Source: a virus
Taxonomy: Duplodnaviria; Heunggongvirae; Uroviricota; Caudoviricetes
Strand: one strand, 5' to 3'
IMG/VR virus record: IMGVR_UViG_2663763220_000006
Length of the DNA stretch: 8,873 nucleotides
The stretch's first letter is position 1. The number at the start of each line of letters is the position of its first letter. Position numbers and translations under genes: made by a program. The notes under the pieces were generated by a model. That model saw only the letters and a list, made by a program, of their open reading frames with translations, ran no database searches and had not been told where the DNA came from. This document shows, piece by piece, positions 2,249 through 8,873 of the stretch.

Positions 2249-2452
2249 ATGGTTACAGTCGCTGAACTGCAGGCGCTGCGTCAGGCGCGCCTTGATTTAT
2301 TAACCGGTAAACGGGTTGTGTCGGTACAGAAAGACGGTCGCAGGATCGAATATACGGCAGCGTCCCTGAATGAGCTTAACCGTGCGATCAACGATGCGGA
2401 GTCGGTTCTGGGTACGACCCGACGCCGCCGACCGCTGGGAGTGAGGTTATGA
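2249..2452 (+). CDS. W: Head-tail joining / head completion protein (lambda gpW-like)
   Basis: 67-aa product MVTVAELQALRQARLDLLTGKRVVSVQKDGRRIEYTAASLNEL… matches recalled lambda gpW (…[27 protein letters not shown]…). GGAGG Shine-Dalgarno at 2238-2242. The stop overlaps the portal ATG (ATGA). Confidence 0.88.
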   Translation: MVTVAELQALRQARLDLLTGKRVVSVQKDGRRIEYTAASLNELNRAINDAESVLGTTRRRRPLGVRL

Positions 2453-4042
2453 AACGAACGCCTGTCCTGATTGATGTGAACGGCGTTCCGCTTCGTGAGA
2501 GTCTCAGCTACAACGGAGGCGGCGCAGGATTTGGCGGGCAAATGGCAGAGTGGTTACCACCGGCGCAGAGTGCCGATGCGGCCCTGTTGCCTGCATTGCG
2601 TCTGGGGAATGCCCGGGCAGATGATCTGGTGCGCAATAACGGTATCGCGGCTAATGCGGTGGCCCTGCATAAGGATCATATCGTCGGGCACATGTTTCTT
2701 ATCAGCTACCGTCTGAACTGGCGTTGGCTGGGGATGCGGGAGACCACGGCAAAAAGTTTTGTCGGGGAGGTGGAAGCAGCCTGGTCGGAATACGCAGAAG
2801 GAATGTTTGGCGAGATCGACGTGGAAGGGAAACGCACGTTTACGGAATTTATCCGTGAAGGGGTGGGCGTGCATGCCTTTAACGGCGAAATCTTTGTGCA
2901 GCCGGTCTGGGATACGGAAACCACGCAGTTATTCCGTACGCGTTTTAAAGCCGTGAGTCCGAAACGGGTGGACACGCCAGGACACGGTATGGGGAACCAC
3001 TTTCTGCGGGCCGGGGTTGAGGTCGATCGGTATGGGCGGGCGATTGCGTACCATATCTGTGAGGATGATTTTCCGTTCTCTGGTGCCGGACGCTGGGAGC
3101 GGATCCCGCGTGAGCTTCCCACCGGGCGTCCGGCCATGCTGCATATTTTTGAGCCGGTGGAGGACGGGCAGACCCGTGGGGCTAATCAGTTTTACAGCGT
3201 AATGGAGCGGATGAAGATGCTGGACTCCCTGCAGGCCACGCAGCTTCAGTCGGCCATTGTGAAGGCGATGTATGCAGCCACAATCGAAAGTGAACTTGAT
3301 ACCGAAAAGGCATTTGAATATATCGCGGGGGCACCGCAAGGTCAGCAGGATAATCCGCTTATTAATATTCTGGAGAAGTTCACCCGCTGGTATGACACGA
3401 ATAACGTGACGCTGGGCGGTGTTAAAATTCCGCACCTTTTTTCCTGGCGATGCGCTGAACCTGCAGACAGCGCAGGATTCAGACAATGGATTTTCGGCGC
3501 TTGAACAGGCGCTGCTGCGGTATATTGCAGCCGGTCTTGGCGTTTCCTACGAACAGTTGTCCCGTGATTACTCGAAGGTCAGTTACTCAAGTGCCCGCGC
3601 CTCCGCCAATGAGTCGTGGCGCTATTTTATGGGGCGGCGAAAATTTATTGCGGCCCGGCTGGCCACGCAGATGTTTTCCTGCTGGCTGGAAGAGGCGCTT
3701 CTTCGGGGGATTATTCGTCCGCCACGGGCGCGTTTTGATTTTTACCAGGCGCGTTCAGCCTGGTCACGGGCAGAGTGGATTAGCTCCGGAAGAATGGCCA
3801 TTGACGGGCTCAAGGAGGTCCAGGAATCGGTGATGCGCATTGAGGCCGGACTGAGCACGTATGAGAAAGAACTGGCACTGATGGGCGAAGATTATCAGGA
3901 CATTTTCCGCCAGCAGGTCAGGGAATCCGCAGAGCGCGAAAAAGCCGGACTCTCACGTCCGGTGTGGATAGCCCAGGCGTATCAGCAGCAGATAGCGGAG
4001 AGTCGCAGGCCGGAAGAGGAGACAACATCACGTGAGACGTAA
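2449..4042 (+). pseudogene. B: Portal protein (lambda gpB-like) disrupted by a +1 frameshift at a T6 run (3437-3442); N-terminal part 2449..3504 and C-terminal part in the other frame to 4042
   Basis: The frame starting at 2449 matches recalled lambda gpB through …LGGVKIPHL (lambda …LGGAKVPHL), then reads 21 unrelated codons and stops at 3504. Similarity resumes in another frame immediately after the T-run (FFPGDALNLQTAQDSDNGFSALEQALLRYIAAGLGVSYEQLSR… versus lambda MPGDSLNLQTAQDTDNGYSVFEQSLLRYIAAGLGVSYEQLSR…) and continues to the stop at 4040-4042. The two parts total ~530 aa, close to lambda gpB at 533. Confidence 0.8.
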
Positions 4043-5595
4043 TCTTTCACATATTATCGCTGCGGCATTCAATGAGCCGCTGCTTCTGGAGCCCGCCTAT
4101 GCGCGGGTTTTCTTTTGCGCGCTCGGGCGTGAGATGGGCGCAGCAAGCCTTTCGGTACCGCAACAGCAGGTACAGCTTGACGCTCCCGGGATGCTGGCTG
4201 AAACGGACGAGTACATGGCCGGAGGCAAACGACCTGCCCGTGTTTACCGGGTGGTGAACGGTATTGCTGTACTGCCGGTGACCGGCACGCTGGTACACCG
4301 GCTGGGTGGCATGCGGCCATTTTCCGGAATGACTGGCTATGACGGCATTGTCGCCTGTCTTCAGCAGGCAATGGCGGACACTCAGGTACGGGGCGTACTG
4401 CTGGACATTGACAGTTCTGGCGGGCAGGCCACCGGCGCGTTTGACTGCGCTGACATGATTTACCGTCTCCGGCAGCTGAAGCCTGTCTGGGCACTGTGCA
4501 ATGACACGGCCTGTTCAGCCGCCATGTTACTGGCATCGGCCTGCTCCCGACGGCTGGTTACCCAGACATCCCGTATCGGCTCCATTGGGGTGATGATGGG
4601 CCATGTCAGCTATGCCGGTCATCTGGCACAGGCCGGTGTGGATATCACGCTGATTTACGCCGGATCGCACAAGGTGGATGGCAATCAGTTTGAATCCCTG
4701 CCAGCAAAGGTTCGCCAGGACATGCAGCAGCGCATTGATGCGGCGCGCCGGATGTTTGCTGAAAAAGTGGCGATGTATACCGGTTTATCTGTGGATGCGG
4801 TTATGGGAACAGAGGCCGCCGTTTTTGAAGGTCAGTCCGGTATTGAGGCCGAACTGGCGGATGAATTAATCAATGCGTCGGACGCCATCAGCGTGATGGC
4901 TGCGACGCTGAACACACACGATACAGGAGGCACTATGCCGCAATTAACTGCAACGGAGGCTGCCGCGCAGGAGAACCAGCGAGTGATGGGGATCCTGACG
5001 TGTCAGGAAGCGAAAGGACGTGAACAACTGGCCACGATGCTGGCAGGGCAACAGGGTATGAGCGTTGAGCAGGCCCGGGCGATTCTGGCCGTGGCGGCAC
5101 CGCAACAATCTGGTGTATCTGCGCAGAGTGAAGCCGATCGCATTATGGCATGTGAAGAGGCGAAAGGACGTGAACAACTGGCGGCAACGCTGGCGGCGAT
5201 GCCGGAGATGACGGTGGAAAAAGCCCGTCCGATTCTGGCTGCTTCACCGCAGGCGAATGCCGGACCCTCACTTCGTGATCAGATTATGGCCCTGGATGAG
5301 GCAAAAGGGGCAGAGGCGCAGGCTGAAAAACTGGCGGCCTGTCCGGGGATGACCGTGGAGAATGCCCGGGCTGTACTGGCGGGGGGCCCCGGNNNNNNNN
5401 NNNNNNNNNNNNNNNNNNNNNNNNNNNNNNNNNNNNNNNNNNNNNNNNNNNNNNNNNNNNNNNNNNNNNNNNNNNNNNNNNNNNNNNNNNNNNNNNNNNN
5501 NNNNNNNNNNNNNNNNNNNNNNNNNNNNNNNTGGCGTGCCACAGACGTCAGCAGACGGTGATGCGGACGTGAAAATGCTCATGGCCATGCCATGA
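4032..5595 (+). CDS. C: Prohead protease / minor capsid protein (lambda gpC-like, ClpP/S49-type fold) with C-terminal scaffold domain; interrupted by the assembly gap 5393-5531, so the 3' end and true length are uncertain
   Basis: Product …AAFNEPLLLEPAYARVFFCAL…NGIAVLPVTGTLV…SGMTGYDGI…GAFDCADMI…KPVWALCND…RRLVTQTSRIGSIGVMM…TLIYAGSHKVDGN…AYTGLSV…TEAAV… matches recalled lambda gpC nearly motif for motif. The only in-frame start after the upstream stop is a GTG at 4032, overlapping the portal stop. After the N gap the lambda-like C-terminus (…SADGDADVKMLMAMP, compare lambda …SDAVNDLLNTPV) is in a different frame and ends at 5593-5595; the continuing frame would stop at 5561. Confidence 0.8.
4935..5595 (+). 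CDS. Nu3: Nu3-like scaffolding protein, nested in-frame within the 3' third of the gpC-like gene (internal translation start)
   Basis: In-frame ATG at 4935 preceded by AGGAGG at 4925-4930 (4-nt spacer). The downstream sequence (…NQRVMGILTCQEAKGRE…) corresponds to the recalled lambda Nu3 region (…NSRIMGILNCEEAHGRE…). Lambda expresses Nu3 from an internal in-frame start in C. Exact start not verifiable; the 3' end is affected by the gap. Confidence 0.4.
4980..5392 (+). repeat. At least three degenerate tandem repeats (~138-150 nt, ~46-50 aa each) within the scaffold-coding region, abutting the assembly gap
   Basis: Identical 22-mer gcgaaaggacgtgaacaactgg at 5010-5031 and 5160-5181 (150-nt period). 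Protein-level units: MGILTCQEAKGREQLATMLAGQQGMSVEQARAILAVAAPQQ / IMACEEAKGREQLAATLAAMPEMTVEKARPILAASPQA / IMALDEAKGAEAQAEKLAACPGMTVENARAVLAGGP. The third unit runs directly into the Ns. Confidence 0.75.
5393..5531. other. Assembly gap (139 N)
   Basis: Uninterrupted run of n characters; the length is not a multiple of 3 and the coding frame differs on the two sides, so the gap size is probably an estimate or placeholder. Confidence 0.98.
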
Positions 5596-5631
5596 AGTCA
5601 GTGCTGACCATCAATATGAGGTTTTTACAAT

Positions 5632-5979
5632 ATGGTAACGAAAACCATCACTGAACAGCGTGCGGAAGTACGTATTTTTGCCGGTAATGATCCGGCCCAT
5701 ACCGCCACAGGCTGCAGCGGGATTTCCTCGGCAACACCGGCTCTGACGCCCCTGATGCTGGATGAGGATACCGGGAAACTGGTGGTCTGGGACGGACAGA
5801 AGGCAGGCCATGTGGTTGGCATACTGGTACTGCCGCTTGAAGGTACAGAGACGGTGCTGACGTATTACAAGTCGGGGACCTTTGCGACGGAGGCCATCCA
5901 CTGGCCTGAGAGAGTGGATACACACAAAAAGGCGAATGCCTTTGCCGGCAGTGCCCTGAGTCACGCAGCGCTGCCGTAA
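5632..5979 (+). CDS. D: Head decoration protein (lambda gpD-like)
   Basis: 115-aa product with …GNDPAHTAT…ATPALTPLMLDEDTGKLVVWDG…VGILV…YYKSGTF…AFAG… matching recalled lambda gpD (…GNSDPAHTAT…[21 protein letters not shown]…GILA…FYKSGTF…AFAG…). GAGG at 5618-5621 upstream of the ATG at 5632. Confidence 0.88.
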   Translation: MVTKTITEQRAEVRIFAGNDPAHTATGCSGISSATPALTPLMLDEDTGKLVVWDGQKAGHVVGILVLPLEGTETVLTYYKSGTFATEAIHWPERVDTHKKANAFAGSALSHAALP

Positions 5980-6036: not shown

Positions 6037-7065
6037 ATGGGATTGTTTACGACCCGCCAGTTACTCGGTTATACCGAACAAAAAGTTAAATTTCGTGCGC
6101 TGTTTCTGGAGCTGTTTTTCCGCCGTACGGTGAATTTCCATACCGAAGAGGTAATGCTGGACAAAATTACCGGAAAAACGCCGGTGGCGGCCTATGTCTC
6201 CCCGGTTGTTGAAGGAAAGGTGTTGCGTCACCGTGGCGGTGAAACTCGTGTACTGCGCCCGGGCTACGTTAAGCCGAAACACGAATTTAATTACCAGCAG
6301 GCGGTGGAGCGTCTTCCCGGTGAAGATCCGGCCCAGCTGAACGGCCCGGCTTACCGTCGCCTGCGTATCATCACCGATAACCTCAAACAGGAAGAGCACG
6401 CCATTGTCCAGGTGGAAGAGATGCAGGCGGTGAATGCCGTGCTGTATGGCAAATACACCATGGAAGGAGAGCAGTTTGAAACTGTTGAGGTCGATTTTGG
6501 CCGGTCGGTGGGAAATAACATTACGCAGGCAGGAGGGACGGAGTGGAGCGCTCAGGACCGCGATACCTTTGATCCGACGCATGATCTGGATGCGTACTGT
6601 GATTTTGCTTCCGGCACCATCAATATTGCCATTATGGATGGTAAGGTCTGGCGTCTGCTGAATGGCTTTAAGCTGTTCCGCGAAAAACTGGATACCCGTC
6701 GTGGCTCAAATTCACAGCTGGAAACGGCAGTGAAAGACCTGGGGGCGGTGGTGTCCTTCAAAGGGTATTATGGTGATCTGGCAATCGTGGTGGCAAAAAC
6801 GTCCTATGTGGCAGAGGACGGTACCGAAAAACGTTATCTGCCGGACGGCACACTGGTACTGGGAAATACGGCCGCAGAGGGTATTCGTTGCTACGGTGCC
6901 ATTCAGGATGCGCAGGCATTGTCTGAAGGCGTGGTGGCGTCTTCCCGTTATCCGAAACACTGGCTGACCGTGGGTGATCCGGCGCGTGAATTCACCATGA
7001 CGCAGTCCGCGCCGCTGATGGTGCTGCCGGATCCGGATGAGTTTGTGGTGGTGCAGGTGAAATAA
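6037..7065 (+). CDS. E: Major capsid protein (lambda gpE-like)
   Basis: 342-aa product (lambda gpE is 341 aa) with extensive identity to the recalled lambda sequence: PGYVKPKHE, RLP-EDPQ, VEEMQAV-AVL-GKYTM-GE-F, ITQ-GGTEWS, KEKLDTRRGSNS-LETAVKDLG, GDPAREFTM-QSAPLM-L-DPDEF. AAGGA Shine-Dalgarno at 6024-6028, ATG at 6037. Confidence 0.95.
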   Translation: MGLFTTRQLLGYTEQKVKFRALFLELFFRRTVNFHTEEVMLDKITGKTPVAAYVSPVVEGKVLRHRGGETRVLRPGYVKPKHEFNYQQAVERLPGEDPAQLNGPAYRRLRIITDNLKQEEHAIVQVEEMQAVNAVLYGKYTMEGEQFETVEVDFGRSVGNNITQAGGTEWSAQDRDTFDPTHDLDAYCDFASGTINIAIMDGKVWRLLNGFKLFREKLDTRRGSNSQLETAVKDLGAVVSFKGYYGDLAIVVAKTSYVAEDGTEKRYLPDGTLVLGNTAAEGIRCYGAIQDAQALSEGVVASSRYPKHWLTVGDPAREFTMTQSAPLMVLPDPDEFVVVQVK

Positions 7066-8463: not shown

Positions 8464-8861
8464 ACCGACACACACAAATCCGTCAGAGCGTGCTGGCACG
8501 CCTTCGGGAACAGTGTGGAGACAGCGCCACGTTTTTTGACGGGCTTCCGGCATTTATTGATGCGCAGGAACTGCCCGCCGTGGCGGTGTGGCTGAGTGAT
8601 GCGCAGTACACCGGAAAAATGACGGATGAGGACGACTGGCAGGCTGTTCTGCATATTGCCGTTTTCGTCCGTGCACAGGCGCCGGATTCTGAGCTGGATA
8701 CGTGGATGGAGAACACCATATTTCCGGCCATGAAGGATATTCCGGTGCTTTCCGGACTCATCGACACCATGATCCCACTCGGTTTTAACTATCAACGTGA
8801 TAATGAGATGGCCACCTGGGCGATGGCGGAAATCACGTACCAGATCACGTACACGAATTAA
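8460..8861 (+). CDS. U: Tail terminator protein U (lambda gpU-like)
   Basis: 133-aa product with …ATFFDG-PA…PAVAV-L…YTG…W…LHI-VF…AQ-PDSELD-WME… matching recalled lambda gpU (…ATFFDGRPAVFDEADFPAVAVYLTGAEYTG…LHIEVFLPAQVPDSELDAWMES…). The ATG overlaps the Z stop (ATGA). Confidence 0.88.
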   Translation: MNRHTQIRQSVLARLREQCGDSATFFDGLPAFIDAQELPAVAVWLSDAQYTGKMTDEDDWQAVLHIAVFVRAQAPDSELDTWMENTIFPAMKDIPVLSGLIDTMIPLGFNYQRDNEMATWAMAEITYQITYTN

Positions 8862-8866
8862 GGAGG
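8861..8866 (+). promoter_or_regulatory. Strong Shine-Dalgarno (AGGAGG) for the next gene, whose start would be an ATG at 8872-8874 completed just beyond the window (expected: major tail protein V homolog)
   Basis: aAGGAGGtggtaAT at the 3' edge directly after the U stop codon (8859-8861). Lambda synteny puts V after U. Confidence 0.4.
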
Positions 8867-8873
8867 TGGTAAT

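Follow-up and report, generated by a model that had tools for sequence, protein, structure and literature searches.

The triplicated scaffold module beside an assembly gap in a lambdoid prophage corresponds to the Tri boxes of phage 21

How many copies of a repeated module does a phage scaffold gene carry when its sequence breaks off in an assembly gap directly behind the repeats, and is such an array a novelty of the phage concerned? This question is raised by a stretch of 8,873 nucleotides (nt) from IMG/VR virus record IMGVR_UViG_2663763220_000006 (Caudoviricetes), referred to below as the window. According to the map of open reading frames (ORFs) and the annotation of syntenic relatives, it covers the head-gene region of a lambdoid prophage. 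The gene of interest (positions 4032-5595, plus strand) is similar to gene 5 of phage 21 and to gene C of lambda, and encodes a predicted S49 prohead protease with a C-terminal scaffold domain. An initial annotation, made from the nucleotide sequence alone, had described in this domain an expanded tandem repeat array, of which the gap might conceal further copies. Our analysis indicates that the region is very probably the 'Tri' triplication of the phage 21-type scaffold domain, i.e. an array of three units with a putative role in scaffold contacts, followed by a gap that stands for 81 nt of unique sequence.

The protease-scaffold gene and its three repeat units

The gpC-like gene, as defined by its ORF and translation, begins with a GTG codon at 4032 and ends with a stop codon at 5593-5595, and its only interruption is a run of 139 N at 5393-5531. 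It is located between the portal gene and the genes of the decoration and major capsid proteins, as is required of a gene of the phage 21 type. In the homologue of an O121 prophage (98% identical), residues 146-293 match the family PF01343 (Peptidase_S49; E=2.1e-35), and the same homologue matches phrog_53 ('head maturation protease') with E=8e-226. The C-terminal part is covered, in three stretches, by the PHROG families head maturation protease, scaffolding protein and capsid assembly protein. A precomputed match to PF01343 is also recorded for P0094, a public protein of 501 amino acids (aa) that shows few differences from the window gene over the 453 residues encoded before the gap.

A second gene is nested in the same frame. 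An ATG codon at 4935, in frame with the start at 4032, is preceded by a putative ribosome-binding site (AGGAG, 4925-4929, plus strand), and opens a scaffold gene (4935-5595, plus strand; ~200 aa when intact) equivalent to gp6 of phage 21 and Nu3 of lambda. This ATG aligns with the annotated start of phage 21 gene 6, and it is the same start codon as that served by the ribosome-binding site annotated in two phage 21 records, M81255 (gene 6) and OL657228. Gene calls in public databases include proteins of 199-200 aa that begin with MPQLTATE (P0003, P0004). These similarities identify the window gene as a protease-scaffold gene of the phage 21 gp5/gp6 type (lambda gpC/Nu3 type), with predicted maturation and scaffolding activities. 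One reading frame would give rise to two products: (i) the full-length S49 prohead protease (gp5/gpC) and (ii) the scaffolding protein (gp6/Nu3), translated from the internal ATG at 4935. Both would share the C-terminal ~200 residues, comprised of three tandem modules of 40-44 aa and a unique tail of ~47 residues.

The modules are encoded on the plus strand by unit 1 (U1; 4974-5105, aa 315-358, NQRVMGILTCQEAKGREQLATMLAGQQGMSVEQARAILAVAAPQ), unit 2 (U2; 5133-5252, aa 368-407, ADRIMACEEAKGREQLAATLAAMPEMTVEKARPILAASPQ) and unit 3 (U3; 5274-5392, aa 415-454, RDQIMALDEAKGAEAQAEKLAACPGMTVENARAVLA...), the final few codons of U3 being corrupted or lost in the gap. Pairwise comparison of the units revealed 19-24 identical residues in 36-37 aligned positions (53-65% protein sequence identity), and 17 alignment columns are invariant in all three. 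The scores of the local alignments lie 14-20 standard deviations above those of 500 shuffled sequences, none of which scored as high. The DNA copies are in register, with a spacing of 150 and 141 nt and an identity of 66-76%. Translation, DNA register and shuffle test thus agree with the initial annotation in that the C-terminal domain of the gpC/Nu3-like gene contains three diverged, in-frame tandem modules; the N run does indeed begin directly after the end of U3. The exact direct repeat reported to recur after 150 nt was likewise found at this spacing, with a true length of 23 nt instead of 22 nt. Its copies (GCGAAAGGACGTGAACAACTGGC; 5010-5032 and 5160-5182, plus strand) encode EAKGREQLA and constitute the longest exact repeat in the array. 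Tandem Repeats Finder, applied to the whole window, reported no array, because the copies are too diverged.

Identity with the Tri boxes of phage 21

A megablast search of positions 4700-5392 against phage records identified a match in phage 21 with ~90% identity. The feature table of the phage 21 head operon (M81255) contains, inside genes 5/6, three repeat_regions designated 'Tri1 box', 'Tri box' and 'Tri3 box'. The window array aligns with this record without insertions or deletions and, by offset, the boxes map to 5002-5105 (U1), 5142-5252 (U2) and 5283-5396 (U3). In the complete phage 21 genome (OL657228), the long ORF is annotated as a capsid protease/scaffolding protein, and the nested ORF as a scaffolding protein with a ribosome-binding site before its internal start. 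The alignment identifies the three units of the window as those annotated in phage 21.

The initial annotation had attributed essentially one copy of the module to lambda, and the gpC/Nu3 gene of NC_001416 does contain a single one (ENSRIMGILNCEEAHGREEQARVLAETPGMTVKTARRILAAAPQ). The pattern expected of lambda Nu3 proper is a single IMGIL..EA.GRE....LA..PGMTV..AR.ILAAAPQ module, and the window contains three; by this comparison, its gene belongs to the phage 21 type and not to the lambda type.

The triplicated module is therefore already known, as it was annotated in the phage 21 head operon decades ago. This statement is based on the GenBank feature table of M81255, a record which we take to be the work of Smith and Feiss (Gene, 1993). 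Full-text literature searches for the phage 21 Tri boxes, for the phage 21 head-gene paper and for Nu3 in phage 21 yielded nothing useful.

Distribution of the array

The novelty implied by the initial annotation, which would have been removed by finding the same arrangement commonly in lambda-like phages, does not hold: the arrangement is common in lambdoid phages, besides being annotated in phage 21. A 693-nt query matched 1867 of 5426 complete E. coli genomes, at up to five places per genome and 2917 places in total, and in 1865 of them a matching place covered at least 80% of the query. At the DNA level, 19 phage records were matched. The scaffold protein was covered to at least 80% in 20 phage records, including those of phage 21, ev017, 4A7, Lambda_4C10, D2, 1W, 3W, the PhiR series and Gifsy-1.

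We also built a profile from the three units and searched it against 1.84 billion representative proteins (E≤0.001). It matched 476 of them, and 127 of the 139 inspected carry one copy, so that one copy appears to be the norm in the wider family. In these single-copy proteins the module is typically placed ~50 residues before the C-terminus of protease-scaffolds of 350-580 aa, or it occurs in small stand-alone scaffolds. Most of the multi-copy matches are phage 21- or Gifsy-type proteins or fragments of them; the others include a further three-unit lineage (P0212) and two distant proteins with two units (P0228, P0327).

Two of the database proteins are peculiar. P0341 (258 aa) is a Gifsy-like scaffold with systematic substitutions of A to V, T to I/M, P to L/F, S to F and H to Y. 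Judging by this pattern, it is a database artefact with the signature of translated C-to-T (bisulfite-type) converted DNA, and not a real variant. P0211 (270 aa) contains an N-terminal DNA methyltransferase-like fragment (DPPY motif) joined to a three-unit scaffold domain, and probably represents either a chimeric gene call or what is left of a rearranged prophage.

Copy-number variants, age and constraint

Variants of the array were tallied among the best 120 full-length homologues. The 501-aa forms give three matches to the unit hidden Markov model. Shorter forms are of three kinds: (i) proteins of 451 aa, with a U1/U2 hybrid followed by U3 (two units), which differ by a 150-nt deletion whose junction lies inside EAKGREQLA, i.e. 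in the 23-nt repeat (P0175, ...CQEAKGREQLAATLAAMPEMT...), (ii) proteins of 452 aa, in which U2 is deleted (two units), including a cluster annotated as E. coli O157:H7, and (iii) proteins of 482 aa, with 19 aa deleted inside U2, which account for 66 of the 120 clusters (P0120 and 65 others). The deletion in the 482-aa forms (TLAAMPEMTVEKARPILAA) takes out the turn and the second helix of unit 2. Longer forms are represented by two singletons of 551 aa with four units and by one protein of 657 aa (P0091), encoded on a 5.59-Mb contig, which contains a duplication of 156 aa that includes the internal scaffold start. One of the four-unit loci (P0092, 551 aa; contig L013, 6001-7656) contains a perfect tandem duplication of 150 nt with an N at the junction, and may be an assembly artefact. 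The larger variants P0091 and P0092 are either genuine recent duplications or such artefacts. The head operons of a two-unit and of a four-unit locus are otherwise intact, and their major capsid proteins are 99.4% identical.

The units of the window were compared with those at the same positions in Salmonella prophages. U1, U2 and U3 share 80, 72 and 68% identity, respectively, with their Salmonella counterparts, which is higher than the 53-65% shared by paralogous units, and they can thus be regarded as positional orthologues between E. coli and Salmonella prophages. It follows from this orthology that the triplication is old, having arisen before these prophage copies of E. coli and Salmonella diverged. 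Synonymous sites have reached saturation (dS 1.6-2.7). The ratio of nonsynonymous to synonymous substitution rates (dN/dS) of the individual units is 0.03-0.12 in comparison with phage 21 and 0.08-0.18 in comparison with Gifsy-1; the values obtained for the protease domain are 0.10-0.16, and those for the tail after the array 0.43-0.60. These ratios indicate that purifying selection acts on every unit as strongly as on the protease domain, and that the constraint is on the protein and not on the DNA.

The foregoing observations bear on the possibility that the array is a recent and unstable product of slippage or recombination, amounting to neutral copy-number noise in a tolerant linker. Such noise could account for the variable copy number of the relatives, whose junctions lie inside the repeat units, for the wide spread of a 482-aa form lacking half of U2, and for the occurrence of two-unit and four-unit loci beside nearly identical capsid proteins. 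We nevertheless consider it very unlikely, as the positional orthology of the units across Escherichia and Salmonella prophages, together with the saturated dS, places the triplication far back, the dN/dS values of the units resemble those of the protease domain and not those of the tail, and 17 columns have been kept invariant across the three units.

A more speculative reading of the allelic series (one, two, 'two and a half', three and, rarely, four units) is that it tunes the valency or length of the scaffold and the fidelity of procapsid formation, or that it reflects host defence systems sensing the protease or scaffold. This is unlikely. If it were true, the number of units would matter beyond recombination noise, and would do so in operons with near-identical capsid proteins. 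In any case, public genomes provide a ready-made series of scaffolds with one to three and possibly four units on near-identical capsid genes, which could serve to study the influence of scaffold valency on procapsid assembly of the lambda type.

The sequence represented by the N run

The question of further units concealed by the gap can be approached through gap-free relatives. P0094, the 501-aa S49 peptidase mentioned above, is on record for Shigella flexneri and E. coli and belongs to a cluster with 205 members. Twenty-two contigs carrying it were read in the look-up and six of them (L007-L012) were retrieved; four were compared with the window by BLAST, and two (L007 and L008) were aligned across the gap. 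Sequence identity between the window and the four compared contigs is 99.7-99.9% on either side of the gap. Where the window shows 139 N, a unique stretch of 81 nt (CAGGGCAGAACCGGTTTCTGCATCCACAACCGCCATGTTTGAACATTTCATGGCGAACCATTCACCGGCAGCGGTACAGGG) that is not part of the repeats is found in L007 and L008; it codes for part of the tail behind the array (...RAEPVSASTTAMFEHFMANHSPAAVQG), and the gene in both contigs has three units, no more and no fewer. In all six retrieved contigs the gene comprises 1506 nt and encodes a 501-aa protein, and genes of 1506 nt are also present in the closest complete genomes (O121 201805972, RMDEC364 and FDAARGOS_943). Beyond the gap, the 3′ end of the window gene (5532-5595, plus strand) encodes (G)GVPQTSADGDADVKMLMAMP, followed by the stop codon.

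The 139-N length breaks the reading frame of the gpC-like gene and is therefore not the true length of the gap. An exact-length mask was ruled out for the same reason, and the extra 58 nt (139 minus 81) match nothing in any relative. With units of 141-150 nt, this difference falls short of a single copy, and it is not divisible by three. Most likely, to judge from the aligned relatives, the N run stands for 81 nt of unique tail and not for additional units.

The bases directly preceding the gap are also aberrant. At 5383-5392 (plus strand) the window reads GGGGGGCCCC(GG), where every relative reads GCAGCCTCAG. The ~450 bases of the array before GGGGGGCCCC are near-perfect in comparison with the closest relatives, with 100% identity to the O121 prophage and one mismatch to L007, and the segment 5383-5392 (GGGGGGCCCC) looks like a degraded contig end.

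It is highly improbable, in view of these data, that the N run hides one or more further units, i.e. that the assembler collapsed or broke an array which truly contains four or more copies. The gap does start at the end of U3, four-unit (551-aa) and 657-aa variants exist in public databases, and many partial S49 peptidases of draft assemblies start or end inside the array. Against this stand the three units and 81 nt of unique sequence in contigs nearly identical to the window on both flanks, the 1506-nt genes of all close relatives with complete genomes, and the 58 nt that would be left after subtraction of the tail, too few for one unit. The four-unit forms, moreover, are two singleton clusters, and the duplication in P0092, with its junction N, could be artefactual. 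A collapse would require units nearly identical over lengths on the scale of reads or k-mers, and close gap-free relatives with more copies at the position of the gap; the units are 66-76% identical, with exact matches of at most 23 nt, too diverged to collapse, and the close gap-free relatives have no additional copies at this position.

Two statements of the initial annotation must accordingly be revised. The copy number, held to be open and potentially larger, is three in the near-identical contigs, where the array is followed by the 81 nt of unique sequence. Nor is the array likely to have caused the assembly break: it is a poor candidate, because its units are only 66-76% identical and its longest exact repeat is 23 nt, it is unbroken in all six short draft contigs retrieved, and the contig end at the gap is corrupt. 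The practical value of the result is a negative one, in that it speaks against interpreting the gap as a concealed expansion of the array.

Ends of draft E. coli contigs appear often to fall inside the Tri array. Several clusters of 'partial' S49 peptidases (P0002, P0014, P0045, P0062, P0069 and P0205; ~100-385 members each) start or end there. Such partial proteins probably arise where prophages that differ in array and tail reside in the same genome.

It is likewise highly improbable that the Tri boxes act as DNA or RNA elements (sites for CII or another regulator, or a cis signal for packaging or translation) and not as protein modules: M81255 does annotate them as DNA repeat_regions, OL657228 marks two minus-strand CII-pattern sites in the gene (protein_bind features), and matches to the CII pattern TTGYN6TTGY that correspond to these features occur on the minus strand of the window at 4940-4953 and 5174-5187, but two occurrences are at chance level (1.58 expected; 90 of 200 shuffles reach two), just one of them lies inside a unit, a scan of 4700-5700 detected no promoter- or terminator-like site in the array (one of each is located downstream of the gap, at 5604-5673), and synonymous sites vary freely between orthologous units while the amino acids are kept, which points to constraint at the protein level.

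Predicted fold and role of the units

The structure of one unit was modelled with AlphaFold2 from a three-sequence alignment only. The model (predicted local distance difference test score, pLDDT, 77) contains a helix at residues 3-27, a turn at the (P/Q)GM motif and a second helix at residues 31-41. For the complete scaffold (199 aa), only helices were predicted, two to three in each unit; the confidence of this model was low (pLDDT 55) and it was left out of the fold search. Each unit may thus fold as a helix-turn-helix hairpin. Pfam and NCBIfam contain no family covering the module, and the weak HHH (helix-hairpin-helix) and HTH (helix-turn-helix) matches obtained in these databases were far below the cut-offs. 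A sequence-profile search of the PDB returned only designed tandem-repeat proteins, via short, low-scoring stretches, and sub-threshold noise; these candidates were rejected as cases of convergent helical-repeat composition.

Interactions of lambda Nu3 with the portal protein B, the protease C and the capsid protein E and with itself are on record, as are its roles in scaffolding, portal incorporation and protease targeting (PMC3224144). Helix-loop-helix structures are described for the scaffolds of P22 and phi29 (PMC3185693). By analogy with these, we infer that the Tri units are putative contact modules of the scaffold. They would make its contacts in the manner of the P22/phi29 helix-loop-helix modules, three copies would provide a multivalent or longer scaffold arm, and this arm would carry the fused protease into the procapsid.

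Some of the data weigh against parts of this interpretation. In M81255 each Tri box bears the comment 'function unknown; putative'. The 482-aa form, devoid of half of U2, is the most widespread allele, with one cluster present on at least 1000 contigs; three intact units are consequently not strictly required for the persistence of the gene, since this form is so abundant. Similarity to the scaffolds of P22 and phi29 is no more than an analogy, as a Foldseek search of the single-unit model against the PDB gave no match at E≤0.001; the unit model itself was built on three sequences, and that of the whole domain is of low confidence. Finally, the gap was closed by proxy, from near-identical relatives and not from the source strain itself; a scan of genome contigs detected no exact match to the 35 bases that precede the gap. 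With these points taken into account, a phage 21-type triplication remains the best explanation of the region. Its value as a discovery is small, as the module was annotated long ago and is present in a large share of E. coli and Salmonella prophages.

Other features of the prophage region

The genes of the terminase large subunit, a gpW homologue and the portal protein occupy the 5′ part of the window, ahead of the gpC-like gene. The decoration gene (5632-5979) and the major capsid gene (6037-7065) are located downstream, and are followed by head-completion and tail genes.

In comparison with FDAARGOS_943, the portal gene (2449-4042) contains a 1-nt insertion that causes a frameshift near 3437 and breaks the gene up into two overlapping ORFs (2449-3504 and 3419-4042). 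L007 shows the same split (ORFs 2389-3444 and 3359-3982), and none of the contigs L007-L012 has a portal gene call, so that the frameshift is a real defect of this prophage lineage and not a sequencing error of the window. As its portal gene is frameshifted, this copy of the prophage is probably defective and unable to make heads.

Comparison with the 99.8%-identical L007 revealed a change specific to the window at 2174-2178, comprising a 1-nt deletion and three clustered mismatches. It puts the final ~25 codons of the gene for the terminase large subunit out of frame, so that the ORF ends at 2248 instead of ~2265. Like the segment preceding the gap, this site may contain a local error of the sequence. 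At 8576-8873 the mismatches to L007 rise from ~1 per 1000 nt to ~22 in 240 nt, a pattern that marks a mosaic boundary inside the tail gene cluster. Another contig, L006, diverges beyond ~7834, where it contains an insertion of ISEc60.

Comparison with known systems

The scaffolding protein gp8 of P22, with its C-terminal coat-binding domain, and gp7 of phi29 contain helix-loop-helix modules, and a short helical hairpin within a scaffold is tentatively predicted for the Tri units too. These scaffolds have no detectable sequence or fold homology with the units and, unlike the product of the window gene, neither a fused protease nor three tandem copies.

Lambda gpC/gpNu3 (NC_001416) is closer. 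It shares the S49 domain, the nested scaffold gene and one copy of the module, which is 57-63% identical to each unit of the window. It differs in having one module instead of three, preceded by a different ~50-residue segment and followed by another tail, as well as a gpC of 439 aa instead of 501 aa and an internal start located further upstream, inside the protease region.

STM2605 of Gifsy-1 and the gpC homologues of related Salmonella prophages contain three units in the same order, each of which is closest to the window unit at the same position, and the notes of the Gifsy-1 record cite similarity to gp5/gp6 of phage 21. Over the scaffold domain, the Gifsy-1 protein shares 54% identity with a scaffold protein of the phage 21 type (P0003), and its C-terminal tail is diverged.

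The closest known system is phage 21 itself, whose genes 5 and 6 are described as head-tail preconnector and capsid protease-scaffold. It shares with the window the gene order (portal, gene 5 with nested gene 6, decoration, major capsid), the internal start, three units at the same positions without insertions or deletions, ~90% DNA identity over 4700-5380, and the length of 501 aa found in gap-free, near-identical copies of the window gene. The two copies of the array differ by point substitutions only, and that of the window contains the N run and lies in a prophage with a frameshifted portal gene.

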